Sequence record: NC_003444
DNA: 37,074 nt
Source: Enterobacteria phage SfV
Direction: 5' to 3' (one strand)
Shown: piece by piece, positions 2,451-37,016 of the stretch
Position numbering within the stretch: the first letter of the stretch is position 1
Layout of the letters: each line of letters opens with the position of its first letter
Program-made: the position numbers and the translations under genes
The notes under the pieces: model-generated
Told to the model about the DNA's origin: nothing
Seen by the model: only the letters and a program-made list of their open reading frames with translations
Database searches by the model: none

Positions 2451-3666
2451 TGCTCTGTTCAGAAGTAAATCACTGGAGAATCCTTCCACCCCGATAACCG
2501 GTGATGCCGTTGATACTGATGGGCTGTTCCGGGCAGACGTTTATGTCAGTCCTGAGACTGCGATGAAACTGGCTGCGGTGTATTCCTGTATCTATGTCCT
2601 GTCTTCCAGCCTTGCCCAGATGCCGTTGCATGTTATGCGCAGGCACAAGGGGAAGGTTGAACCCGCACGCGATCATCCGGCGTTTTATCTGGTTCATGAT
2701 GAGCCCAATACCTGGCAAACCAGCTACAAATGGCGCGAACTGAAACAACGTCACATCCTTGGCTGGGGGAATGGGTATACCTGGGTGAAACGTAATCGTC
2801 GCGGTGAAGTCATATCCCTGGATTGCTGTATGCCGTGGGAAACGACGCTGATGAATACTGGTGGCCGATATACCTACGGTTTGTACAACGAATATGGGGC
2901 GTTTGCGATCAGTCCGGACGATATGATCCACATCCGTGCGCTGGGTAATAATCAGAAGATGGGGCTGAGTCCGATTATGCAACATGCCGAAACAATAGGC
3001 ATGGGGATGAGCGGTCAGAAGTACACAGAAAGCTTCTTCAGCGGTAATGCCCGTCCGGCGGGGATAGTATCCGTTAAAAGCGGACTCAATAAGGAAAGCT
3101 GGGGCTGGCTTAAAGATCAGTGGCAGAAGGCATCGCAGGCGTTACGCCGCCAGGAAAACAAAACCATGCTGCTGCCAGCCGATCTGGATTACAAGGCACT
3201 GACTGTGTCGCCAGTTGACGCTCAGATCATTGACATGATGAAGCTGAACCGTTCAATGATCGCCGGTATTTTCAATATTCCTGCGCACATGATTAATGAC
3301 CTCGAAAAAGCCACCTTCTCCAATATTTCTGCGCAGGCGATTCAGTTTGTCCGCTACACGATGATGCCGTGGGTGACGAACTGGGAGCAGGAGCTTAACC
3401 GTCGCTTGTTTACCCGCGCTGAGTTAGCCGCCGGGTATTACGTCAGGTTCAATCTGACGGGGCTTTTACGCGGAACTCCGCAGGAGCGCGCGCAATTCTA
3501 TCACTTCGCTATTACCGATGGATGGATGAGCCGTAATGAGGCCCGCGCATTCGAGGATATGAATCCGGTTGAAGGGCTGGACGAGATGCTGGTAAGCGTG
3601 AATGCTGCTAACCCGGCAGGAGATTTTAAGCCCCCAAAAAACGATGAGGGAAAAACCAATGAATGA
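2440..3666 (+). CDS. portal protein (HK97 family)
   Basis: ORF 2392..3666; start probably GTG 2440 (GGGGGA just upstream) giving [10 protein letters not shown]; length and position typical of a portal. Confidence 0.85.
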   Translation: MLLDALFRSKSLENPSTPITGDAVDTDGLFRADVYVSPETAMKLAAVYSCIYVLSSSLAQMPLHVMRRHKGKVEPARDHPAFYLVHDEPNTWQTSYKWRELKQRHILGWGNGYTWVKRNRRGEVISLDCCMPWETTLMNTGGRYTYGLYNEYGAFAISPDDMIHIRALGNNQKMGLSPIMQHAETIGMGMSGQKYTESFFSGNARPAGIVSVKSGLNKESWGWLKDQWQKASQALRRQENKTMLLPADLDYKALTVSPVDAQIIDMMKLNRSMIAGIFNIPAHMINDLEKATFSNISAQAIQFVRYTMMPWVTNWEQELNRRLFTRAELAAGYYVRFNLTGLLRGTPQERAQFYHFAITDGWMSRNEARAFEDMNPVEGLDEMLVSVNAANPAGDFKPPKNDEGKTNE

Positions 3667-4261
3667 CCGTGAAATCCGTTGTTACAGCGGTGAGGTGCGT
3701 GCTGAGAGGCATGACGATAACCCGGCGCACATTATCGGTTATGGATCGGTGTTTGACTGTCGTTCTGAGCTGATATTCGGTTCATTCCGCGAAATCATCC
3801 GGCCCGGCGCTTTTGACGATGTGCTTGGTGATGATGTACGCGCACTGTTTAACCACGATCCTAATTTTATTCTTGGGCGTAGTGCAGCAGGCACGCTGAA
3901 TCTCTCAGTTGATGAGCGCGGATTACGCTATGACATCCAGGCTCCGGAGACACAGACCATTCGTGATCTGGTGCTGGCCCCGATGCAACGTGGAGATATT
4001 AACCAGTCATCTTTCGCTTTCCGTGTCGCCCGTGACGGTGAGGAGTGGTATCAGGATGAGGACGGGGTTGTTATTCGCGAGATAACCCGCTTTTCCCGTC
4101 TGCTGGATGTCAGTCCTGTGACATATCCTGCCTATCAGGAGGCTGACTCGGCTGTTCGCTCCATGAAAGCATGGCAGGAGGCGCGCAACAGCGGCGCGCT
4201 ACAGAAAGCCATTAATCAACGTATGGCGCGTGAACGCGTCCTGACCCTTCTTAACGCGTAA
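3659..4261 (+). CDS. prohead maturation protease (HK97 S78-like)
   Basis: ORF 3602..4261; ATG 3659 preceded by GAGGG; placed between portal and major capsid gene. Confidence 0.8.
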   Translation: MNDREIRCYSGEVRAERHDDNPAHIIGYGSVFDCRSELIFGSFREIIRPGAFDDVLGDDVRALFNHDPNFILGRSAAGTLNLSVDERGLRYDIQAPETQTIRDLVLAPMQRGDINQSSFAFRVARDGEEWYQDEDGVVIREITRFSRLLDVSPVTYPAYQEADSAVRSMKAWQEARNSGALQKAINQRMARERVLTLLNA

Positions 4262-4271
4262 AGGAAACATC

Positions 4272-5501
4272 ATGAAACTGCATGAACTGAAACAGAAACG
4301 TAATACTATCGCAACTGACATGCGCGCCCTGAATGAAAAAATTGGTGATAACGCATGGACGGAAGAGCAGCGCACGGAGTGGAACAAAGCAAAATCCGAA
4401 CTGGAAGCGCTTGATGAACGAATTGCACGCGAAGAAGAACTGCGTCGTCAGGATCAGGCGTACATTGAAAGCAATGAGGAAGAGCAGCGTCAGAATCTTG
4501 ATCCGGAAAACAATTCGCAACAGGATGAGAAACGAGCTCAGGTTTTTGATAAGTGGATGCGTCACGGTGCCAGTGAGCTGACATCAGAAGAGCGAAAGGC
4601 GTTGCGTGAACTTCGTGCCCAGGGTGTAGCTCAGGATGAAAAGGGCGGATATACCGTACCAGAAACATTCCTGGCGAAAGTTGTTGAGAAGATGAAATCC
4701 TACGGTGGCATCGCCAGTGTGGCGCAGATTCTGACCACTTCTGACGGTCGCACCATGGAGTGGGCAACAGCTGATGGTACTTCCGAAGTTGGTGTTCTGC
4801 TGGGCGAAAATGAAGAAGCCGGTGAAGAAGACACCGATTTCGGTATGGGAAGTCTTGGGGCGCTCAAAATGACATCGAAAATCATTCGTGTGTCTAATGA
4901 GTTGCTGCAGGACAGCGCGATCGATATGGAAGCTTATCTTGCCCGTCGCATTGCTGAACGTATTGGTCGTGGTGAAGCCCGTTATCTGATTCAGGGGACG
5001 GGTGCTGGTACGCCTAAACAACCCAAAGGGCTGGCAGCATCAGTGACCGGCACAACACAGACTGCCGCGGCAAATGCGGTGAAGTGGCAGGAAATTCTGG
5101 CTCTGAAACACAGCATTGATCCTGCATATCGTCGCGGACCGAAATTCCGCCTGGCGTTTAACGATAATACGCTGAAACTGATCAGTGAGATGGAAGACGG
5201 TCAGGGACGCCCTTTATGGTTGCCGGATATTGTTGGTGTGGCACCTGCTTCAGTGTTGAATGTACCGTATGTCATTGATCAGGAAATTGATGATATCGGG
5301 GCGGGTAAAAAATTCATGTTCTGTGGTGACTTTGATCGCTTCATTATCCGTCGTGTGCGATACATGATTCTTAAACGTCTGGTTGAGCGTTACGCGGAAT
5401 ATGATCAGACCGGTTTTCTGGCCTTCCATCGTTTTGACTGTATCCTGGAAGACACCTCTGCCATTAAAGCGCTGGTGGGGAAAGGTAGCGTTGGTGGTTG
5501 A
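4272..5501 (+). CDS. major capsid protein (HK97 fold) with N-terminal coiled-coil scaffolding (delta) domain
   Basis: 409 aa; charged coiled-coil N-terminus (ELKQKRNTIATDMRALNEKI...) followed by capsid domain; follows the protease. Confidence 0.9.
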   Translation: MKLHELKQKRNTIATDMRALNEKIGDNAWTEEQRTEWNKAKSELEALDERIAREEELRRQDQAYIESNEEEQRQNLDPENNSQQDEKRAQVFDKWMRHGASELTSEERKALRELRAQGVAQDEKGGYTVPETFLAKVVEKMKSYGGIASVAQILTTSDGRTMEWATADGTSEVGVLLGENEEAGEEDTDFGMGSLGALKMTSKIIRVSNELLQDSAIDMEAYLARRIAERIGRGEARYLIQGTGAGTPKQPKGLAASVTGTTQTAAANAVKWQEILALKHSIDPAYRRGPKFRLAFNDNTLKLISEMEDGQGRPLWLPDIVGVAPASVLNVPYVIDQEIDDIGAGKKFMFCGDFDRFIIRRVRYMILKRLVERYAEYDQTGFLAFHRFDCILEDTSAIKALVGKGSVGG

Positions 5502-17857: not shown

Positions 17858-19111
17858 TTAAGGCTGTTTTTTTATTAATGTCATCGTCCATCCTGCAGGG
17901 TTGAACTTGAAAGAATACGATTCTCCTGGTGCTAAACTTTCAAATTTTTTAACTTGCTCTTTCCACCCGTAATCTGGGAGTGGGGTAAGATTGAAAAAAT
18001 ATAAACATGAGATTAACGATGTTGTATATAATATCCATGGTAGGAATTTAAAGTCCAACTGGGAAATATGGTTTAAGAAGTAAACCAATACAGAGTACCA
18101 TATAATTGTTGGTATGACAGAATATCTTCCCCCGCCATGAATTAATAATGGCCATTGCTCACTTGTAGAAGAAAGCATTGGTTTTGCTAGTGAAAACGTT
18201 AATGTTAGTATTGCGAAAACTATTGCCGAGCGCATGGGGTAATTGGAAACAATAAATGTAAAAATAGTGATGGAAAGACAAATCATTGTAATTGCAATGC
18301 AAATTGAATCATGATTCCATAAAGGTGGCAAAAAGTCACCATTAGCCCATAAACCCAGAAAAACCTTTGTTGTTAATATTTTGCAAAGTGTTGCGAAATT
18401 AGCTCCAAGAACCATATCAACTCTGGTCTCAGAGGATGTCATGATAATAGAAATAAATTGAATCAAACAAATAGCAATGAAAACGTATTCGTGAGTGGTG
18501 ATTTTTTTTGTAGATAAGCGTTTTTGTATAAGTATATTTATCCCTACCATTGGAGCCATGAACACTATAAATGGGCCACTTAGTCCACATATGATTATCG
18601 CTATATAATCGTGTGCTTTTTGATAATTATTTGTAGGCTTTGGAGCTAACATAACAAGAAGTAAATATAGTGATAAATACCAATGATCATTAGTAACATT
18701 GGCGTGCACTTCTGATACTTCCGGCATTGTTATAATAAACAAAGCAGTAAATATTCTTGGTGTTATGTTTACGTAACTAAATCTTCCAGAGAGTATGAAA
18801 GATACAAGCAATGCCCTAACAATAATTGCGGAGATGTTAAAAATTAAAGGGGCATACATTAAATTAAAATTTAATGATATGGAGGCAATAAGTTTTGATA
18901 TGGTTTGATAATATCCATTTTGAGGGAATATCATTGATGTGAATATCCCATTATTGTATGCCATAGCATACCATACATGAGCATCTTCTGCCCAAAACTG
19001 CGGTGCTCTGATTATATCAGGACGGCGCAAATACATCAAAATAACTGCAATGAAAAATACACCAATTAAGAAAAATAGTTTTTTTACATATGATGTTTTA
19101 AGGCTTTTCAT
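17858..19111 (-). CDS. gtrC: serotype-specific O-antigen glucosyltransferase GtrC (type-specific Gtr; matches my memory of 417-aa GtrV)
   Basis: 417-aa polytopic membrane protein directly downstream of gtrB; third gene of a gtrA-gtrB-gtr(type) cassette. Confidence 0.75.
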
Positions 19112-20031
19112 TTTTGTTTCTCATTTTTGATGATGTATTTTGGGCGATGTTTGCTTTCAATATAGATTCTGCCTATATATTCACCGAGAACACCAATCCC
19201 GATCAGTTGCACTCCACCCAAGAAAAGTATTGATACAAGCAGGGAGGGATACCCGCGTACTGGGTTACCAAAGACAAGGGTGTCTATAATCATCCATGCA
19301 CCATATAAAAATGAAATGCTTGCAACAAACAAACCTATATAAGTCCATACGCGAAGAGGAAAGGTTGAAAAACTTGTGATACCTTCCAGTGCCAGATTCC
19401 ATAATTTCCAGCCATTAAATTTTGAGATGCCAGCAACGCGCTCTGCGCGTACATATTCAACGACATCTGTCTGACCACCCACCCAGCTCAGTATGCCTTT
19501 CATGAAAAGATTGCGCTCAGGCAACAGTTTAATGTTCTCCACAACCTCACGAGACATGAGTCGAAAATCTCCGACATTTTCCTCGATCTTTGGGGTGCTT
19601 ATTTTGTTGTGTAACTTATAGAACCACTCAGCTGTCTTACGTTTCAGTCGTCCATCAGTTGAGCGGTCTGAACGTTTAGCAAGCACCATGTCAGCACCTG
19701 CCTGCCACTTTTCAATAAGATGAGGGATGACCTCAATAGGATCTTGCAGGTCGACATCAATAGGAATTACAGCATCGCCGCTTGCATGGTCTAACCCTGC
19801 AAATAAGGCTGGTTCTTTACCAAAGTTGCGTGTAAATGACAGCGGAACAACTAGTGGGTCTGAAACAGCCAGCGCGTTAATAATTGACTCTGTGGCATCT
19901 TTACTTCCGTCATTTATGAATACAATTTCTACTTCATATGGCTTCAACTCTTGGAATTCACGTACCGTTTTATAGAAAACAGGTATCGCTTCTTCTTCAT
20001 TGAAGACAGGAACGACAAGAGATATTTTCAT
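19108..20031 (-). CDS. gtrB: bactoprenol glucosyltransferase GtrB (GT2 family)
   Basis: 307 aa; N-terminal GT2 signature ([15 protein letters not shown]...INDGSKD) plus C-terminal transmembrane helices. Confidence 0.9.
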
Positions 20032-20390
20032 TTCGCATCCCTAAAGACAATGAACTTTGAATAGACGAAACCGCACACCAGACTGATGGCGGAGAAGGTG
20101 ATAAGAGTGACTATTGGAGGAAGTGAGCATTTATCAGCTGCCCAACCAACAATCACACTCAATATTCCCATAAATCCCACGTATAACATGTAGCGCATCG
20201 CTGTAGTCGATGCTTTGAATGTGAATCTTGCATTCGCGAAGAAGCTAAAGCTCACAGCCACTACGAAACCTGTGAAGTTTGCCAGAGCCTGACTGGTATG
20301 TGCGGCATAGATACATACACCAAAAACCACCCAGTGTATAAGTGTGTTCAGCACACCTATAGATGTGTACTTTACAAATAACTTTAACAT
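20028..20390 (-). CDS. gtrA: GtrA flippase-like membrane protein
   Basis: 120 aa, four predicted TM segments, ATGA-coupled upstream of gtrB. Confidence 0.85.
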
Positions 20391-20651: not shown

Positions 20652-21815
20652 TTACACATCATTAGTACCTTCCTTATTTTTTGACTGGGACGAATTTGGG
20701 ACCGATGGGTTCAGGATCGAGTCTATTTGCCGTGCGTGTTCGGTAAGGTGATTAGGTGCAAGGTGAGCATATCGACGAACCATTTCGATAGACTCCCAGC
20801 CTCCCATTTCCTGTAACACTGACAACGGGACTCCGGCTTGACCCAGCCAACTTGCCCAGGTGTGTCTCAAGTCGTGAAATCTGAAATCATCAATACCAGC
20901 CCGTCTCAGCGCCGCTTTCCAGGCTGTGTTTGCGTCATACCGCATCTCCCTTACTGTTGGCGCTTTCGTTCCGTCTGGTTTGGTACAGCTTTCCTTGTAC
21001 ACAAATACCCAACGGTGATGATTCCCGATTTGTTTTTTCAAAACGCGACATGCAGTATCATTCAGCGCAACGCCAATTGCGCGGTTTGATTTACTCTCTT
21101 CCGGGTTTATCCATGCCACCCGGCGCTGCATGTCTATTTGTTGCCATTCAAGGTTGATGATGTTCGAGCGTCTTAAGCCTGTTGCCAGTGCAAATTCAAC
21201 AACAGACTTTAATGGCTCCGGACATTCATCAATCAGCCTTTGTGCTTCATGGGGCTCCAGCCAGCGGATCCGTTTATTCTTTGGTTGAGGCACTTTAATA
21301 ATTGGTGCCTTATCCAGCATTTTCCATTCACGCTCTGCGGCTCTTAGTAGGGCCTTTATAAATGAAAGATGCGTAGCCTTCGTTGCAACGGACGCTGGTT
21401 TTGGCGTGTATTCTGGAACAGGTTTCCCTTTTTTCCTGCATGCTTCTGCCCTGAGTCTCCAGTTTTCCTCATGACGCCGGTTCGTCATTTTCTGGATTGC
21501 TGAATAAATTTTTGATTCAGTAATGTCTCTTAGTTGCATTCCTGCGAAATGTTGAAGCCAGAATCCGATCCGGCTTTTGTCATCGTCCAGTGATTTTTGA
21601 TGTGCTTTCTCTTCAAGCCACCTGACACACGCTTCCTCGAACGTTATATCAGGTATTTCACCAAGTTTGCTGACCCGCCATGCTTCAGCCTTTAGCTTGT
21701 CATGGAGTTCTGTCGCCTGCCTTTTGTCCTTTGTTCCAAGAGACTGTTTAAATCTTTTACCGTTCGGCAATGTGAAACTGGCGTACCATATTTCACCTCT
21801 GCGGAAGAGTGACAT
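20652..21815 (-). CDS. int: tyrosine integrase (site-specific recombinase)
   Basis: 387 aa; C-terminal catalytic region [10 protein letters not shown]...RRYAHL with the tyrosine; SD AGAGGAAA upstream; adjacent to attP. Confidence 0.9.
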
Positions 21816-27246: not shown

Positions 27247-28079
27247 ACAGTTTAACGGCAAATAACCGTTTGTCGCAACAGCTGGTGGTCAGCGTCGCTG
27301 AACACCTGTTGTTACGGCATGAATGCAGATTACCAAATCACCTGGCTGTAAGTAACCACAGAGAACTTTACCTGACTGTGGGGGGCGAGTTGTGCAGGAA
27401 CTTAACCGCTGGTTTCGTGACGGAAGAGGACTTTATGTTCATGTTATTCGTTGGGAGCCAGAAACACAGCGCGTTATCTATCTTCGCAAAGACTACCCGC
27501 ATGAGTGCTTTAGTCCTTTGTGGAAATTCAGGCGTGATTTTGTTGAGTGTGAAGGACCACCAGCACATTGATTCTGCCATTCCGGGACGTTACACTGTTC
27601 AGGCACCTTATAAAGCGGGTGCCGGGATTGGCGTCCTGGAATTGATCAAGGCGATATATGACGCGCCAGCGTCTTTTTTATCGTCCGCATTTGCTCACAT
27701 CAAAGTTATGGTGGGCTGGGCGGGGGCATCGAAAGATGCGCCGGTTTCCTTGATCACCGGTTACGCCAACCCCGTTCAGTTCACCACCAGCGAAATTGCC
27801 GTTTCCGGTGGTGGAAGTATTTCACCGATCAAGGAGGCTGCCATCATGGCTACTGTCCCAGCCCTCACTCGTCTGAATGATGAAGACTTACATAAACTCA
27901 GTTATGTAACAACTGCACTACGTGCTCTGCGCAAGGTAACTCTTTCGGATCCCCAGGCGCATCAGGTTTTGGTAGAAACCCTTCTTAACTTGCAGGCTGA
28001 ACGTATTCGTCTGGCGGATAAGGCTAATTTTCATATTCACCGTCTCCTGAATATCAGCGGAGGGCATCGTCATGCTTAA
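27243..28079 (+). CDS. hypothetical protein (gene model uncertain)
   Basis: 278-codon ORF with ATGA coupling to the upstream gene; strong internal AAGGAGG-ATG at 27846; alternative-frame GTG ORF 27392..27571. Confidence 0.4.
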   Translation: MNSLTANNRLSQQLVVSVAEHLLLRHECRLPNHLAVSNHRELYLTVGGELCRNLTAGFVTEEDFMFMLFVGSQKHSALSIFAKTTRMSALVLCGNSGVILLSVKDHQHIDSAIPGRYTVQAPYKAGAGIGVLELIKAIYDAPASFLSSAFAHIKVMVGWAGASKDAPVSLITGYANPVQFTTSEIAVSGGGSISPIKEAAIMATVPALTRLNDEDLHKLSYVTTALRALRKVTLSDPQAHQVLVETLLNLQAERIRLADKANFHIHRLLNISGGHRHA

Positions 28080-31806: not shown

Positions 31807-32802
31807 GTGACCGTGAGAGCACTACTGACCCCTGAAATTGCCCCGCGTATGGGGATCGTATTGTTCAGGCCAGGTTCAGAGCTGATGCCCCTGTTTATGC
31901 AGGGGCGTGTCCTGCTGGAGCCTGAGCCAGAACGTTATTCATCTTTCGCCAGTGGTGCCGTTCCGGCGGCATCACAACCGCTGGCGGATGATCCTGCCGT
32001 TCGGGCCGTGTTCCGCAATGAGGCAGTGATCCGTCGTGCTGGTGGCGTGGAATGTCTTGAAAGCTGGTTACTTCGTGAAAAAGGCTGCCAGTGGCCTCAT
32101 TCCGACTGGCACAGCGAGAACATGACCACAATGCGACACGCTCCGGGCGCAATCCGTCTGTGCTGGCACTGCGATAACCAGCTGCGCGATCAGTTCACGG
32201 AACGGCTGGAATCAATGGCAACGGATAACTGTGCCCGCTGGGTGTTGTCTGTAGTCCGTCGGGATCTCGGTTTTGATGATAACCATGCCGTGACAATGCC
32301 GGAACTGTGCTGGTGGCTGATTCGTAATGACCTCGCGGATGCCTTACCTGAAAGCGCAGCCCGTAAGGCGCTGAGATTACCGAAACCTGTTGTGCCGTCT
32401 GTCACCCGGGAAAGTGACCTTGTGCCTTCGGTTCCTGCCACCAGCATCATCCAGGATAAAGCGAAAAAGGTGCTGGCGCTGAAAGTGGATCCGGAGTCGC
32501 CGGAGTCTTTTATGTTACGCCCAAAACGCCGCCGCTGGGTTAATGAAAAGTACACGCGCTGGGTTAAGACACAGCCGTGTGCATGTTGTGGAAAGCCTGC
32601 TGATGATCCCCACCACCTGATAGGCCACGGTCAGGGTGGAATGGGTACAAAAGCGCATGACCTCTTTGTGTTGCCTTTGTGCAGAAAGCATCACGACGAG
32701 CTGCATGCGGATACCGTGGCATTTGAAGAGAAGTATGGCTCTCAGCTGGAGCTGATATTTCGTTTTATCGATCGTGCGCTGGCAATTGGCGTATTGGCGT
32801 AA
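31807..32802 (+). CDS. Cys/His-rich nin-region protein (DUF968-like)
   Basis: 331-aa ORF (start uncertain, GTG 31807); C-terminal CACCGKPADDPHHLIGHG...CRKHHDELH metal-binding-like motif. Confidence 0.5.
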   Translation: MTVRALLTPEIAPRMGIVLFRPGSELMPLFMQGRVLLEPEPERYSSFASGAVPAASQPLADDPAVRAVFRNEAVIRRAGGVECLESWLLREKGCQWPHSDWHSENMTTMRHAPGAIRLCWHCDNQLRDQFTERLESMATDNCARWVLSVVRRDLGFDDNHAVTMPELCWWLIRNDLADALPESAARKALRLPKPVVPSVTRESDLVPSVPATSIIQDKAKKVLALKVDPESPESFMLRPKRRRWVNEKYTRWVKTQPCACCGKPADDPHHLIGHGQGGMGTKAHDLFVLPLCRKHHDELHADTVAFEEKYGSQLELIFRFIDRALAIGVLA

Positions 32803-32815
32803 GTGGAGAACGAGC

Positions 32816-33568
32816 ATGAACCTTGAAGCCTTACCAAAATATTACTCCCCAAAATCTCCAAAATTGAGCGATGACGCACCGGCGACAGGCTCAGGTGGTT
32901 TAACGATTACGGATGTGATGGCTGCGCAGGGGATGGTGCAGTCGAAAGCACCGCTTGGGTTTGCCTTATTCCTGGCAAAAGTTGGTGTTCAGGATCCTCA
33001 ATTTGCGATTGAAGGTCTGCTCAATTACGCGATGGCACTGGATAACCCGACATTGAACAAATTGAGTGAAGAAACCCGGTTACAGATCATCCCTTACCTT
33101 GTGAATTTTGCCTTTGCTGATTATTCCAGGTCTGCGGCAAGTAAGGCTCGCTGTGAGCATTGTGCTGGTACTGGATTTCATAATGTATTGCGCGAAGTGG
33201 TGAAACACTCCAGAAGCGGGGAATCTGTTATCAAGGAAGAGTGGGTGAAGGAACTATGTCAGCATTGTCATGGTAAGGGAGAAGTCAGCACAGCGTGCAG
33301 AGGGTGTAAGGGTAAAGGTATTGTCCTGGATGAAAAAAGGACCCGGCTTCATGGCACACCTGTTTATAAGATTTGTGGGCGTTGCAATGGAAACCGGTTT
33401 AGCCGTTTACCAACCACACTGGCGCGGCATCATGTCCAGAAGCTGGTACCAGACCTGACAGATTATCAGTGGTACAAAGGATATGCAGATGTCATTGATA
33501 AACTGGTTACAAAGTGCTGGCAGGAAGAAGCATATGCTGAGGCGCAATTAAGAAAAGTGACGAGATAA
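32816..33568 (+). CDS. late-gene antiterminator Q (zinc-finger type)
   Basis: ORF 32774..33568; ATG 32816 after GGAG; four CxxCxG motifs; immediately upstream of the late promoter and lysis genes. Confidence 0.75.
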   Translation: MNLEALPKYYSPKSPKLSDDAPATGSGGLTITDVMAAQGMVQSKAPLGFALFLAKVGVQDPQFAIEGLLNYAMALDNPTLNKLSEETRLQIIPYLVNFAFADYSRSAASKARCEHCAGTGFHNVLREVVKHSRSGESVIKEEWVKELCQHCHGKGEVSTACRGCKGKGIVLDEKRTRLHGTPVYKICGRCNGNRFSRLPTTLARHHVQKLVPDLTDYQWYKGYADVIDKLVTKCWQEEAYAEAQLRKVTR

Positions 33569-33599
33569 ATGATTTTCGCCGAAGATGGCGACATAATGC

Positions 33600-33628
33600 T
33601 TGCATTTTTCAAAAAATATGGATAAGAT
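33600..33628 (+). promoter_or_regulatory. pR'-like late promoter
   Basis: -35 TTGCAT (33600-33605), 17-nt spacer, -10 TAAGAT (33623-33628); 30 nt downstream of the Q stop. Confidence 0.5.
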
Positions 33629-33675: not shown

Positions 33676-33699
33676 ACCCGCCGCTGAGCGGGTTTTTTT
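33676..33699 (+). terminator. tR'-like rho-independent terminator
   Basis: Stem cccgc/gcggg with loop cgctga followed by T7 (33693-33699); ~60 nt downstream of the putative pR' start. Confidence 0.55.
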
Positions 33700-33817
33700 G
33701 TGCCTTGATGTTGGCAGTACGGTAAACACGCTGGTGGTCGTGAATACTGACTTTTTATCTTGCTGGCTTTTTAGACAAGAGTTATTGGTATGTCATGTTA
33801 ACCAGAAGGAAAAAGGC

Positions 33818-34012
33818 ATGCTAAAACAGCAAGATATGACAGAAACGGCGAAAGTTGTTTTTAATGAATTAAGCATCGAACCGGCAACAGTCGGGGAGAT
33901 TGCACAAAACACATATCTTTCACGCGAACGCTGTCAGTTAATACTGACCCAGTTGGTTATGGCGGGGCTGGCAGATTACCAGTTCGGCTGTTACAGACGC
34001 CTTCAGCAATGA
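33818..34012 (+). CDS. small putative DNA-binding protein (64 aa)
   Basis: ORF 33698..34012; ATG 33818 after AAGGAAAAAGG; first gene after tR'. Confidence 0.45.
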   Translation: MLKQQDMTETAKVVFNELSIEPATVGEIAQNTYLSRERCQLILTQLVMAGLADYQFGCYRRLQQ

Positions 34013-34161
34013 AGGACTTTTAATTTGTGAAAATGGGCGGCTGGTGGGTGTTGGTAGCACCTGCCAGCCATTCGCTCATGCTTACTGGTCACAAGCGAAC
34101 CACGGCCCACTGCTTTAGCGCAAAAGCAGAGTGAGCCTACCAGAGTTACGCTTACTGATCC

Positions 34162-35214
34162 ATGAAAAATACTGTAAAAATAAACAGTGTTGATTTAATC
34201 AACGCTGATTGCCTGCATTTTATTCAGTCCCTGCCTGATGATTCCATTGACCTGATTGTTACCGATCCGCCGTACTTCAAGGTGAAACCCAACGGTTGGG
34301 ACAATCAGTGGAAAGGGGACGAAGATTACCTTAAGTGGCTGGATCACTGTCTGGCCCAGTTCTGGCGGGTGTTGAAACCTGCCGGAAGCCTTTACCTGTT
34401 CTGTGGACATCGCCTGGCATCTGATATTGAGATCATGATGCGTGAACGTTTCAACGTGCTTAACCATATCATCTGGGCGAAGCCGTCCGGACGTTGGAAT
34501 GGGTGTAATAAAGAAAGTCTGCGTGCATATTTTCCTGCCACAGAGCGCGTTCTGTTTGCTGAACATTACCAGGGGCCATATCGTGGCAAAAGTGACGGCT
34601 ATGCGGCAAAAGAAAGGGAACTCAAACAGCACATAATGGCACCGCTGATATCGTATTTCAGGAATGCTCGTGCCGAACTGGGTATAACGGCAAAACAAAT
34701 TGCCGAAGCCACAGGTAAGAAAAATATGGTTTCCCACTGGTTTGGTGCCAGTCAGTGGCAGTTGCCGAATGAGGCTGACTACCGGAAGTTACAGGCACTG
34801 TTTTCCCGTATAGCGGCAGAGAAGTTTCAGGAACAGCAACTGGAACAACCACACCACCAGCTGGTGGCATCTTATGATTCACTGAATCGCAAATATTCTG
34901 AATTGCTGGATGAGTTTAAATCACTCCGGCGCTATTTCTCCGTATCAGTCTCCGTGCCTTATACCGATGTCTGGACGCATAAGCCCGTTCAGTTCTATCC
35001 GGGTAAACATCCGTGCGAGAAACCGGCGGATATGCTCCGGCAAATAATCAATGCCAGTAGTCGACCAGGCGATCTGGTTGCTGATTTCTTTATGGGATCC
35101 GGTTCCACAATAAAAGCGGCAATGGCGCTGGGGCGTCAGGCGTTAGGTGTTGAACTTGAGTCAGAGCGGTTTAATCAGATGGTGAAAGAGGTAAGTGAAC
35201 TGGTGGGGAAATAA
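34162..35214 (+). CDS. orphan DNA methyltransferase (beta-class N6A/N4C amino-MTase)
   Basis: 350 aa; motif IV DPPY near N-terminus (LIVTDPPYF) and SAM-binding motif I near C-terminus (DLVADFFMGSGST); no adjacent endonuclease. Confidence 0.85.
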   Translation: MKNTVKINSVDLINADCLHFIQSLPDDSIDLIVTDPPYFKVKPNGWDNQWKGDEDYLKWLDHCLAQFWRVLKPAGSLYLFCGHRLASDIEIMMRERFNVLNHIIWAKPSGRWNGCNKESLRAYFPATERVLFAEHYQGPYRGKSDGYAAKERELKQHIMAPLISYFRNARAELGITAKQIAEATGKKNMVSHWFGASQWQLPNEADYRKLQALFSRIAAEKFQEQQLEQPHHQLVASYDSLNRKYSELLDEFKSLRRYFSVSVSVPYTDVWTHKPVQFYPGKHPCEKPADMLRQIINASSRPGDLVADFFMGSGSTIKAAMALGRQALGVELESERFNQMVKEVSELVGK

Positions 35215-35290
35215 TTCTGGTGGCCACGTTGCGTGGCCTTTTTATTTCCAACACAGCACCCGCAAATATCGCGAGGTGAGAGATGACGAA

Positions 35291-35626
35291 ATGCCTCATA
35301 ACCCAAATACATGGCCGGACTGGCTGGAGTTGTTTCAGAGCTGGTGGCGTGGAGACACACCGCTTGGTGCAGTGATTATGTCGATCGTTATGGCTGGTTT
35401 GCGCATCGCCTATTTTGGCGGTGGTGGTGGCTGGAAGCGAAAAACGCTCGAGATTTTGCTATGTGGCGCTCTGACGCTGACCTTTGCATCCGCTCTTGAG
35501 TATGTCGGATGGCCTAAATCGCTTTCTGTTGCCATTGGTGGTGGCGTGGGGCTGATCGGTGTCGATGCTATTCGTGGGGCTGCAATGCGAGTAATCGGTA
35601 ACAAATTTGGTAGCTCGAAGGAGTAA
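35291..35626 (+). CDS. holin (lambda S-like, three TM segments)
   Basis: ORF 35195..35626; ATG 35291; three hydrophobic segments and charged C-terminus; immediately upstream of the endolysin. Confidence 0.7.
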   Translation: MPHNPNTWPDWLELFQSWWRGDTPLGAVIMSIVMAGLRIAYFGGGGGWKRKTLEILLCGALTLTFASALEYVGWPKSLSVAIGGGVGLIGVDAIRGAAMRVIGNKFGSSKE

Positions 35627-36665: not shown

Positions 36666-37016
36666 ATGCCCCCTCGAACTCCAAAAGCCTGCCGCGTTCG
36701 CGGCTGCCGTAATACCACGACAGACCCGTCAGGCTACTGCGAAAGCCACAAAAGCGAAGGCTGGAAGCAATACAAACCTGGACAATCCCGTCATCAGCGC
36801 GGTTATGGTTCTAAGTGGGATGTTATCCGTGTGCGTGTGCTGCAACGTGACAAAGGCCTGTGTCAGTTATGTCTGCGTGCTGGTGTGGCGCGTGAAGCGA
36901 AAACCGTTGACCACATCATCCCTAAAGCACATGGCGGCACTGATGCCGACAGTAATCTGCAGAGTCTGTGCTGGCCGTGCCATAAGGCGAAGACGGCCCG
37001 TGAACGGCTTAAGTGA
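36666..37016 (+). CDS. HNH endonuclease
   Basis: 116 aa; Cys-rich N-terminus and HNH core (DHIIPKAHGG...N...CWPCH); AGGAA upstream of ATG. Confidence 0.85.
   Translation: MPPRTPKACRVRGCRNTTTDPSGYCESHKSEGWKQYKPGQSRHQRGYGSKWDVIRVRVLQRDKGLCQLCLRAGVAREAKTVDHIIPKAHGGTDADSNLQSLCWPCHKAKTARERLK

Follow-up and report, generated by a model that had tools for sequence, protein, structure and literature searches.

M.EcoGII of Escherichia coli O104:H4 is a prophage-borne, non-specific adenine methyltransferase (PMC5778455). It is silent in the lysogen and harmful if expressed constitutively, and it is assumed to be switched on at induction (PMC5778455; PMC12707154). Lysogens that carry M.EcoGI, M.EcoGII or their homologues give no methylation signal. 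The com-mom system of phage Mu likewise encodes a toxic enzyme for adenine modification, which stays silent in lysogens and is expressed late (PMC12707154; PMC6483171); a small gene lies upstream on the shared transcript, and an RNA structure marks the beginning of the modification gene. Hin1523, Nma1821 and Hia5 of Mu-like prophages are adenine methylases of relaxed specificity, which are preceded by com-like genes, are inactive under laboratory conditions and are thought to be broad anti-restriction replacements for Mom (PMC3299994). The start of the lambdoid late operon, finally, is the neighbourhood of the lambda 6S and StxS pR'-tR' transcripts and of AgvB and AsxR (PMC7547250, PMC4104026).

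Here we compare with these systems a locus of Enterobacteria phage SfV, lying in a window of 37,074 nucleotides that represents the whole stretch of DNA analysed (record NC_003444). Its methylase gene is an ordinary, widespread prophage gene of an already characterised family. The most interesting part of the locus, and a moderately interesting candidate in its own right, is the folded RNA leader in front of this gene, which is strongly conserved and apparently undescribed.

The methylase and its place in the late operon

The gene at 34162..35214 (+ strand, ATG start) encodes a 350-aa N6-adenine DNA methyltransferase of the beta class and the M.EcoGII family. A first-pass annotation had proposed an orphan beta-class amino-methyltransferase at this place, and the protein matches Pfam N6_N4_Mtase accordingly (PF01555; E=1.8e-42, 146 bits against a cutoff of 26.7, residues 29-340), as well as PADLOC MTase_II (2.4e-151). 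Its catalytic DPPY motif (residues 35-38, nt 34264-34275) precedes the FxGxG motif, which reads F-M-G-S-G (residues 310-314, nt 35089-35103), and this order places the enzyme in the beta class. DPPY and the GSGS of FxGxG are invariant in six aligned homologues (A3), and the FxGxG phenylalanine is also present in all six. The solved beta-class enzymes M.RsrI, M1.MboII, CcrM and M.PvuII, together with PDB entries 9c3u/8urk ('Methyltransferase'), share the Rossmann core and the motifs with the SfV protein. The PDB relatives, RsrI, MboIIA, CcrM and PvuII among them, were found with E values from 1e-24 to 1e-6. These enzymes match at the N- and C-terminal core only; for the central ~170 residues, which comprise the target-recognition domain and a linker, no solved relative was found by sequence. 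Hin1523, Nma1821 and Hia5, although also phage-borne adenine methylases, belong to the alpha class, with reversed motif order and an architecture that is not homologous to that of the SfV enzyme.

The closest likeness is to M.EcoGII and M.EcoGI of E. coli O104:H4 C227-11 (PMC5778455), which are beta-class enzymes of 349-350 aa and colinear with the SfV methylase. The O104:H4 protein, which is the M.EcoGII sequence printed in Supplementary Table S1 of PMC11551740, is identical to it at 283 of 348 positions (81%) without a single gap, the target-recognition region included. About 19% of the residues thus differ, as do roughly a fifth of the positions in the target-recognition region. Extrapolating from this relative, we consider the SfV methylase to be probably sequence-non-specific; it may serve in anti-restriction. 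The O104:H4 locus resembles that of SfV further in having an upstream winged-helix ORF and an RNA leader in a lambdoid prophage, downstream of Q. Its small ORF is, however, a different allele, 51% identical to that of SfV, and downstream of the methylase gene come tRNA genes and a nanS-like esterase, in place of the terminator and holin gene of SfV.

The SfV cassette lies between Q and tR' on its left and the holin gene on its right. The Q gene (32774/32816-33568, PF03589) is followed by a tR'-like intrinsic terminator on the + strand (33677..33699), in which a stem, CCCGC-CGCTGA-GCGGG (33677-33692), precedes a run of seven T (33693-33699); phage Ayreon has an annotated terminator at the equivalent position. 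A second intrinsic terminator (35222..35248, + strand; GGCCACG-TTG-CGTGGCC followed by TTTTTATTT), again with an annotated counterpart in Ayreon, separates the methylase stop from the holin start. The lambda-S-family holin gene (35291..35626, + strand), with its start taken from the RefSeq annotation of a 99.7% identical prophage, adjoins the slot from outside the module, and a GH24 endolysin gene and Rz/Rz1 come next. No restriction endonuclease gene adjoins the methylase, the neighbours being Q, the winged-helix ORF, holin, endolysin and Rz/Rz1, and in this respect the orphan status assigned at first pass stands. The nearest nuclease-like genes encode an HNH protein of the terminase-associated type (36666-37016) and a DUF968/HNHc protein upstream of Q.

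Phage SfII, the closest relative by structural genes, carries other genes between Q and the holin gene, which identifies this interval as a cargo slot and agrees with the variable location that the first-pass annotation had recognised. Its term 'moron' is not supported in the strict sense: the terminator is present (35222-35238), but a consensus scan revealed no + strand sigma-70-like promoter between tR' and the methylase, and the homologue M.EcoGII is silent in lysogens. The SfV methylase is cargo in a variable slot, not a demonstrated moron.

This arrangement is common. Of 5426 complete E. coli genomes, 1525 carry the methylase module, which is also present in phages mEp460, cdtI and Ayreon and in many other Enterobacterales. 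Its place is always between Q and the lysis genes, even though the Q genes belong to three unrelated Pfam families and the holins to several types, and the placement was seen in Escherichia, Pantoea, Cedecea, Klebsiella and Buttiauxella. On its left side, the conserved module is bounded by the tR' hairpin, from which phages with different Q genes align (A1). The order within the cassette is winged-helix gene, terminator-like hairpin, RNA leader, methylase gene and terminator, and its hosts are lambdoid and related temperate phages. The leaders and methylases analysed below owe their diversity to a genome scan and to a second scan that started from a methylase of 56% identity; scans of viral and metagenome sequences with the methylase alignment yielded little beyond near-identical E. 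coli copies and did not widen the sampled diversity.

The small winged-helix gene and the RNA leader

Downstream of tR', a conserved 5' leader of the small ORF (33701..33817, + strand; alignments A1 and A8) contains a block, CTTGCTG...AGAGTTAT..GTATGTCA, that is kept across genera. The ORF itself (33818..34012, + strand, ATG start; phrog_331) encodes a 64-aa protein, for which a helix-turn-helix fold had been suggested at first pass. Its Pfam matches are weak and remain below cutoff (DprA_WH, 17.5 bits; TrmB, 16.8), but the AlphaFold model (pLDDT 90.5) has a clear winged-helix topology, H1-S1-H2-H3-wing. Foldseek returned generic winged-helix matches only (E about 2e-3, TM 0.6-0.8) and thus no functional lead. 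The most likely role of the protein is to regulate the cassette by binding nucleic acid. It has 326 homologues in Enterobacterales and exists as two alleles with 51% identity, which have the N-terminus and helix 3 in common. Among the surveyed loci, 24 have the leader alone and 20 the gene alone, which makes a strict partnership of protein and leader RNA unlikely and weakens the idea of an obligate pair.

In Mu, the corresponding upstream protein is the zinc ribbon Com rather than a winged helix, Mom is an acetamido-transferase and not a methylase, and late transcription depends on the C activator, in contrast to Q antitermination in SfV. No Com ORF exists in SfV between 34013 and 34161, where the sole ORF (34027-34134) lacks cysteine pairs and is disrupted by indels in related loci. 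Distant relatives of the SfV methylase do share a true Com-like zinc-ribbon ORF with Mu; such ORFs lie between leader and methylase in loci L079 (PF10122, 8.3e-13) and L075 (0.0023).

The small ORF ends in a terminator-like hairpin, CCTTCAGCAATGAAGG (34000..34025, + strand), in which the stem-loop (34000-34015) holds the stop codon in its loop and precedes a U-rich tract. Most related loci have an equivalent GC-rich hairpin with a U tract, and in several of them it is a clear terminator with T7-T8. Directly 3' of this hairpin, the conserved leader of ~135 nt (34027..34161, + strand) extends up to the methylase start codon. It comprises helix P1 (34039-34050/34058-34069), a 12-bp stem with two G.U pairs, helices P2 (34071-34076/34094-34099) and P3 (34104-34116/34123-34137), and a weak helix P4 (34139-34143/34155-34159), all on the + strand. 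The hairpin that the first-pass annotation had placed at 34038-34069 is real as a 12-bp stem, with compensatory changes in other genera, yet it is not an isolated structure, being helix P1 of the larger element. The + strand folds with a minimum free energy of -64.4 kcal/mol (z=-4.7), and the methylase AUG, which has no Shine-Dalgarno sequence, is unpaired in this fold. A Proteus-like lineage, by contrast, has an ordinary Shine-Dalgarno sequence and no leader.

Mean nucleotide identity in the leader is 87%, as opposed to 40% at the four-fold synonymous sites of the adjacent coding sequence. The leader is present upstream of nearly all methylases with at least 70% identity, and divergent copies precede methylases that are only 54-62% identical. 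It is non-coding, since indels in relatives break the reading frame; the 35-aa ORF at 34027-34134 was rejected as a gene for the same reason, as single-base indels shift its frame between genera. Rfam 15 gave no match over 34013-34161 at the gathering threshold or at E<=5, the only matches nearby being terminator look-alikes at tR', and ARAGORN found no tRNA or tmRNA in the leader region. Strings of the leader sequence were absent from the papers searched, barring a chance 15-mer match in an unrelated circovirus paper. The known EHEC prophage sRNAs AgvB, AsxR and StxS were considered and rejected as well: together with lambda 6S, they differ from the leader in sequence and position, StxS ends at tR' and thus upstream of the cassette, the AgvB and AsxR sequences given in the supplement bear no relation to the SfV leader, and the papers describing these sRNAs make no mention of the methylase.

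Compensatory changes occur in three helices of the leader. The strongest covarying column pair is CG in 31, AU in 10, UA in 9 and UG in 4 sequences, and is thus 100% paired. In the MAFFT alignment, ten leader pairs carry double changes, compared with 4.0+-1.3 in shuffled alignments, none of which reached this number (0/500). A wider, model-fitted alignment (A6), which leans towards the modelled structure, has double changes in 24 of 36 pairs and in 197 cells, against 50+-6, and slid controls were far lower. RNAalifold, applied to an unfitted alignment, recovers the pairing UGGGC:GCCCA in 31 of 31 sequences. The invariant UGGGC (34034-34038) can pair with GCCCA (34105-34109), closing a three-way junction, or else with GCUCAU (34074-34079). 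The leader thereby has folds open to it that exclude one another. The alternative pairings are supported almost entirely by one-sided changes. A further hairpin lies in methylase codons 4-9 (P5, 34171-34175/34184-34188; 88.6% paired), with ACUGG/CCAGU variants in L292 and L294.

Alternative readings of the element and the enzyme

The element could mainly be the gene of a minus-strand cis-antisense sRNA. Such an RNA would run from close to the methylase start codon to the P1 hairpin and a U tract, and would act in lysogens as an antidote to leaky methylase mRNA in the manner of a type-I toxin-antitoxin system. The minus strand folds well too (z=-3.2), the C.A mismatch that is constitutive in P3 turns into a U.G pair there, UUU(U) follows P1/P1a, and synonymous sites in methylase codons 2-12 show unusual conservation. 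Across the leader, C.A cells exceed G.U cells by 132 to 80, a count that leaves the functional strand undecided, and P1 contains many + strand G.U pairs. The U tract after P1 is only 3-4 nt long on the minus strand. A weak TCAACA-16-TATTTT motif is present in the core group, but its -35/-10 candidates are missing from the divergent element-bearing loci L058, L064, L294 and L075, no minus-strand promoter-like site passes the consensus scan in SfV, and among 15 lineages the first 75 nt of the coding sequence hold no minus-strand promoter that is conserved with the element. We therefore regard an antisense RNA as unlikely. Still less probable is an action as DNA, either as an operator of the winged-helix protein at the P1 inverted repeat or as a recombination 'linker' at the module boundary. 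P1 is indeed a long, 12-bp inverted repeat, helix 3 is conserved between the winged-helix alleles as expected for a shared target, and lambdoid mosaics are known to have conserved junction sequences. However, pairing is kept in three separate helices while the sequence changes, and such compensatory changes point to selection on pairing in RNA (or single strands) and not on a duplex recognised by a protein. Moreover, 24 loci have the element but lack the winged-helix gene, and mosaic breakpoints fall at tR' and within the small ORF, not in the element.

If the element acts as + strand RNA, it might still be a put-like RNA for processive antitermination or a SAM/SAH riboswitch instead of a translational gate. 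P1 and P2 stand one nucleotide apart just after a terminator-like hairpin, with a downstream gene and then a terminator, a layout that we take to resemble the HK022 put sites; the invariant nucleotides in junction and loops, like the mutually exclusive helices, are what riboswitches typically show. With no match to an Rfam riboswitch or any other family, and with antitermination already provided by Q, we consider both options highly improbable. The enzyme, too, may be viewed differently, as a site-specific, host-directed epigenetic methylase whose low expression from the prophage alters host genes, and not as a late anti-restriction enzyme. Some orphan methylases, Dam and CcrM among them, act as regulators, sequence does not reveal specificity, and the target-recognition region differs from M.EcoGII at about a fifth of positions. 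The gap-free, colinear alignment through this very region, the lack of a methylation signal from M.EcoGI, M.EcoGII and homologues in lysogens, the harm caused by constitutive M.EcoGII, and the position of the gene between terminator-like hairpins without a promoter of its own make this view very doubtful.

A proposed late-lytic gate on DNA methylation

We consider it likely that the locus is a mobile cargo cassette of the late operon, in which Q-dependent late expression and gating by the leader act together on a probably non-specific methylase. In the lysogen, transcripts from pR' would end at tR', and any that leak past it would end at the second hairpin (34000..34025). Only Q-modified RNA polymerase would read through, and for this reason the methylase mRNA is proposed to be restricted to the late lytic phase. 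The leader, able to form either the P0/P1/P2 three-way junction or a fold with an extended P1, in which GGUC/AGC would pair with GCU...GAUC 5' of the AUG, would add a post-transcriptional gate on translation of the toxic methylase, in the role that Com plays for Mu mom. The Com-like ORFs of L079 and L075, and the com-like genes ahead of non-specific adenine methylases in Mu-like prophages (PMC3299994), offer a precedent for a gate of this kind. From its position and conservation, we suggest that the leader probably helps to hold the toxic methylase off until shortly before lysis. The enzyme would then modify the adenines of replicated phage DNA before packaging, and this could blunt many restriction systems of the next host. 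The first-pass annotation had likewise deduced methylation of progeny DNA from late-operon expression, in agreement with the published behaviour of M.EcoGII (PMC5778455; PMC12707154). A search for literature on induction-dependent hypermethylation by the M.EcoGII family returned nothing relevant.

A more specific version of this proposal, which we put forward tentatively and hold to be somewhat short of an even chance, is that the leader represents an undescribed bistable RNA. A three-way junction (P0/P1/P2, with hairpin P3) would alternate with a fold in which the region preceding the AUG is paired, with a ligand or protein deciding between the two, so that the methylase is translated only in cells committed to lysis. 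Such control would be a lambdoid counterpart of Mu Com-mom. Candidates for a protein that sets such a switch are the winged-helix protein, the methylase itself and a host factor.

The methylase gene alone changes nothing, being a further copy from a well-known prophage family. If the leader is functional, however, it would account for the harmless presence, in roughly a quarter of E. coli strains, of at least one gene for a genome-wide adenine methylase. It would also add a new class of structured RNA to phage late-gene control, which has so far been dominated by Q, N, put and Com, and would bear on the native regulation of M.EcoGII, not described so far. M.EcoGII is now in standard use for chromatin footprinting and in RNA methylation tools. 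The leader may furthermore serve as an experimental handle on the timing and extent of phage DNA hypermethylation, which affects restriction evasion, m6A-dependent (type IV) defence and the spread of Stx and other converting phages.

The methylase gene pair and its cargo slot

The reading frames reported in the first-pass annotation, of 64 aa (33818-34012) and 350 aa (34162-35214), lie exactly at those positions on the + strand. The larger product matches Pfam N6_N4_Mtase (PF01555, E=1.8e-42) and carries DPPY (residues 35-38) and then FMGSG (residues 310-314), an order that places it in the beta class and bears out the earlier call of an amino-methyltransferase with DPPY and FxGxG motifs. Its solved relatives by sequence are the beta-class enzymes RsrI, MboIIA, CcrM and PvuII, which align in the N- and C-terminal core only. 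The methylase had also been described as lacking a partner restriction endonuclease, and none adjoins it among the flanking genes.

The homologous cassette of E. coli O104:H4 encodes a 349-aa methylase that is identical to the SfV enzyme at 283 of 348 positions without gaps, and Supplementary Table S1 of PMC11551740 lists this protein sequence under the name M.EcoGII. M.EcoGII is a prophage-encoded, non-specific adenine DNA methyltransferase, which is unexpressed in the lysogen, harmful when expressed constitutively and presumed to turn on at induction (PMC5778455, PMC12707154); in other lysogens, a methylation signal from its homologues is absent. Because M.EcoGII, 81% identical, has already been characterised, the SfV enzyme is, judged by sequence, a new member of a known family, and this identity together with a colinear target-recognition region suggests that it may be non-specific as well. 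This is a well-known and very frequent pair of genes: the 1.7-kb region shares 96-98% identity with phages vB_EcoM-720R4, mEp460, Ayreon and cdtI and 89% with Stx2c phages, and of 5426 complete E. coli genomes, 1525 carry it. In a Klebsiella aerogenes prophage (L012, 4001-4900) that retains the winged-helix gene and RNA element, no methylase is called after them, and the methylase appears to be deleted or truncated. On a Vibrio sinus plasmid (L075, 2456-3519), the methylase occupies two separate ORFs (2456-2938 and 2947-3519), owing either to a frameshift that has made it a pseudogene or to an error in sequencing.

The proposed placement between Q/tR' and the holin holds. The upstream side comprises KilA-N and DUF968 genes, the Q antiterminator (32774-33568), a protein with PF03589 and a CXXCXGXG zinc-finger region of the DnaJ type, and a tR'-like terminator with its stem at 33677-33692 and a T7 tail. 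On the downstream side are an intrinsic terminator (35222-35238, then a T run), a holin of the lambda-S type, whose start is placed at 35291 in the RefSeq annotation of a 99.7% identical prophage, the GH24 endolysin and Rz/Rz1 genes, and an HNH gene. Q proteins combining PF03589 with the DnaJ-type zinc finger recur in Pantoea and Cedecea prophages. At 35195-35290, a long GTG-started ORF overlaps the methylase 3' end and crosses the intrinsic terminator; it is annotated as holin in phage vB_EcoM-720R4. Its Pfam holin match starts only at residue 35, RefSeq sets the holin start at 35291, and the part ahead of this start probably stems from misannotation.

In essence, the window is the entire genome of a temperate, SfII/SfIV/SfI-like phage (97-98% identity to these phages across about 70-75% of the first 25 kb), which begins at the terminase genes and finishes at the lysis cassette and HNH gene. 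Its reverse-strand ORFs at 17858-20390 lie where, in the corresponding region, matching Shigella phages have annotated O-antigen glucosyltransferase (gtr) genes, and adjoin an integrase-sized ORF (20652-21815). The early region contains a P1/P7-type antisense immunity/antirepressor control module (27603-27791) with gathering-level Rfam matches on the + strand to isrK (27603-27679, 64 bits) and C4 antisense RNA (27704-27791, 82 bits). In SfII, the interval from Q to the holin contains no methylase but two unrelated genes on the reverse strand. The cassette, found in Escherichia, Pantoea, Cedecea, Klebsiella and Buttiauxella, is preceded by three unrelated Q families (PF03589, PF06323, PF06530) and followed by several holin types, and in phages with different Q genes homology starts at the tR' hairpin; it is cargo in a variable slot. 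The term "moron" in its strict sense is unsupported, because no sigma-70-like promoter was found between tR' and the methylase, and transcription should therefore depend on Q-modified polymerase. The 117 nt from tR' to the small ORF (33701-33817), in which no consensus promoter was found, are nearly invariant among E. coli phages, and the blocks CTTGCTG and AGAGTTAT..GTATGTCA are retained in Pantoea, Cedecea, Klebsiella and Buttiauxella. By eye, a weak pR'-like TTGCAT-17-TAAGAT lies at 33599-33627, below the threshold of the promoter scanner.

A structured RNA leader before the methylase

The hairpin noted earlier between the two genes is real but not isolated: it forms helix P1 (34039-34050/34058-34069) of a larger conserved element of about 135 nt (34027-34161) that abuts the methylase start codon. 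The 150 nt separating the genes are almost invariant, even where the methylases are only 75-81% identical. In a profile search of 80 genome loci from more than 20 genera, the element preceded almost every methylase that is 70% or more identical, and in Tatumella it precedes one of 60% identity. Across 48 loci, it is on average 87% identical to the SfV copy, compared with 73% for the methylase CDS and 40% for its four-fold synonymous sites. Because single-base indels interrupt a 35-aa ORF within it, the element is non-coding. It matches no Rfam family or tRNA, and its sequence strings returned only a chance 15-mer in an unrelated circovirus paper in the searched literature. In Trabulsiella odontotermitis (L019, 1495-1674), the 5' half of the element recurs in partial, weakly matching form some 800 nt ahead of the full copy (nhmmer E=5.5e-10, covariance model E=0.012).

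The + strand of the element has a computed folding energy of -64.4 kcal/mol (z=-4.7). When mutual information was scanned without prior assumptions over a MAFFT alignment of 55 sequences, one column pair stood far above all others (CG 31, AU 10, UA 9, UG 4); it is 100% paired and defines P2 (34071-34076 with 34094-34099). The model built on this alignment comprises P1, P2, P3 (34104-34116/34123-34137), P4 (34139-34143/34155-34159) and a hairpin in methylase codons 4-9; it is 89.5% paired, with double changes in ten pairs as against 4.0+-1.3 in shuffles (0/500). The derived covariance model found divergent copies in Pseudocitrobacter, one Vibrio plasmid and many viral contigs, directly 5' of methylases 54-62% identical. 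In the resulting 75-sequence alignment, which was fitted to the model and thus leans towards it, 24 of 36 pairs show compensatory changes (197 cells versus 50+-6 in shuffles; P1 11/12, P2 4/6, inner P3 5/6), and the covariation score is 0.249 versus 0.036-0.060 for slid controls. Independently, RNAalifold, run on 31 diverse copies aligned without fitting to the model, pairs the invariant UGGGC (34034-34038) with GCCCA (34105-34109) in 31/31, including a G:C-to-A:U double change in two sequences; the helix so formed would enclose P1 and P2 in a three-way junction.

For several short segments, two alternative partners are conserved. UGGGC has GCUCAU (91.6% paired) and GCCCA as possible partners, and the P2 3' strand and GGUC of the P2 loop can pair with GCU...GAUC just 5' of the AUG (94.4% paired), which is the minimum free energy fold of the SfV copy. 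The leader could thus act as a conformational switch, which we offer as a hypothesis and not as a result, because the alternative pairings are backed almost entirely by one-sided changes.

Small proteins and proposed control of methylase expression

The 64-aa ORF, annotated earlier as a small putative DNA-binding gene, has a predicted winged-helix topology (AlphaFold pLDDT 90.5; H1-S1-H2-H3-wing). It belongs to phrog_331 and has 326 homologues over Enterobacterales labelled 'TrmB family' or 'DprA-like winged helix'; it has no match in PADLOC or NCBIfam, and its Pfam matches fall below cutoff. Foldseek returned generic winged-helix domains only (MarR/OhrR, IclR, N-terminal O-methyltransferase domains and the RNA-binding SelB winged helix). 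Binding of DNA or RNA by the protein is plausible. Two alleles (SfV 33818-34012; L004, a related locus, 4109-4312) are 51% identical, share the N-terminus and helix 3 and diverge in the middle and C-terminal parts only, within flanking DNA of at least 97% identity, which looks like a cassette-like replacement within a conserved frame. The gene and the leader are separable (both at 87 loci, leader alone at 24, protein alone at 20); an obligate partnership of the protein with the RNA is therefore unlikely.

In most loci, a GC-rich hairpin with the stop codon of the small ORF in its loop and a U tract lies 5' of the element, in some as an obvious T7-T8 terminator; tR', this second hairpin and the post-methylase terminator bracket the methylase gene with terminator-like hairpins. 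The wobble count (80 G.U versus 132 C.A cells) does not settle the functional RNA strand; the + strand lies in the late operon, and no antisense promoter conserved with the element was found. No member has a Shine-Dalgarno sequence at the methylase AUG; in contrast, a Proteus-like lineage without the leader has an ordinary AAGGA. We infer a regulatory role for the leader.

Among the loci that carry the element or are related, the most distant have a zinc-ribbon ORF resembling Mu Com between element and methylase. Such ORFs immediately precede remote beta-class relatives of the methylase in the terminase-to-portal interval of an Acinetobacter Mu-like prophage (L079, 2326-2514; PF10122, 8.3e-13) and, as a weak match, on the Vibrio sinus plasmid (L075, 2335-2445). 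Com activates translation of the toxic Mu mom gene (PMC6483171), and in Mu-like prophages, genes resembling com lie ahead of other non-specific adenine methylases (PMC3299994); post-transcriptional gating of such enzymes, which the leader may provide, thus has precedent.

The first-pass annotation was right in observation and interpretation, for a gene pair that is ordinary and already characterised through M.EcoGII. What our data add to this known pair is a well-supported and apparently undescribed structured RNA leader before a family of toxic methylase genes.
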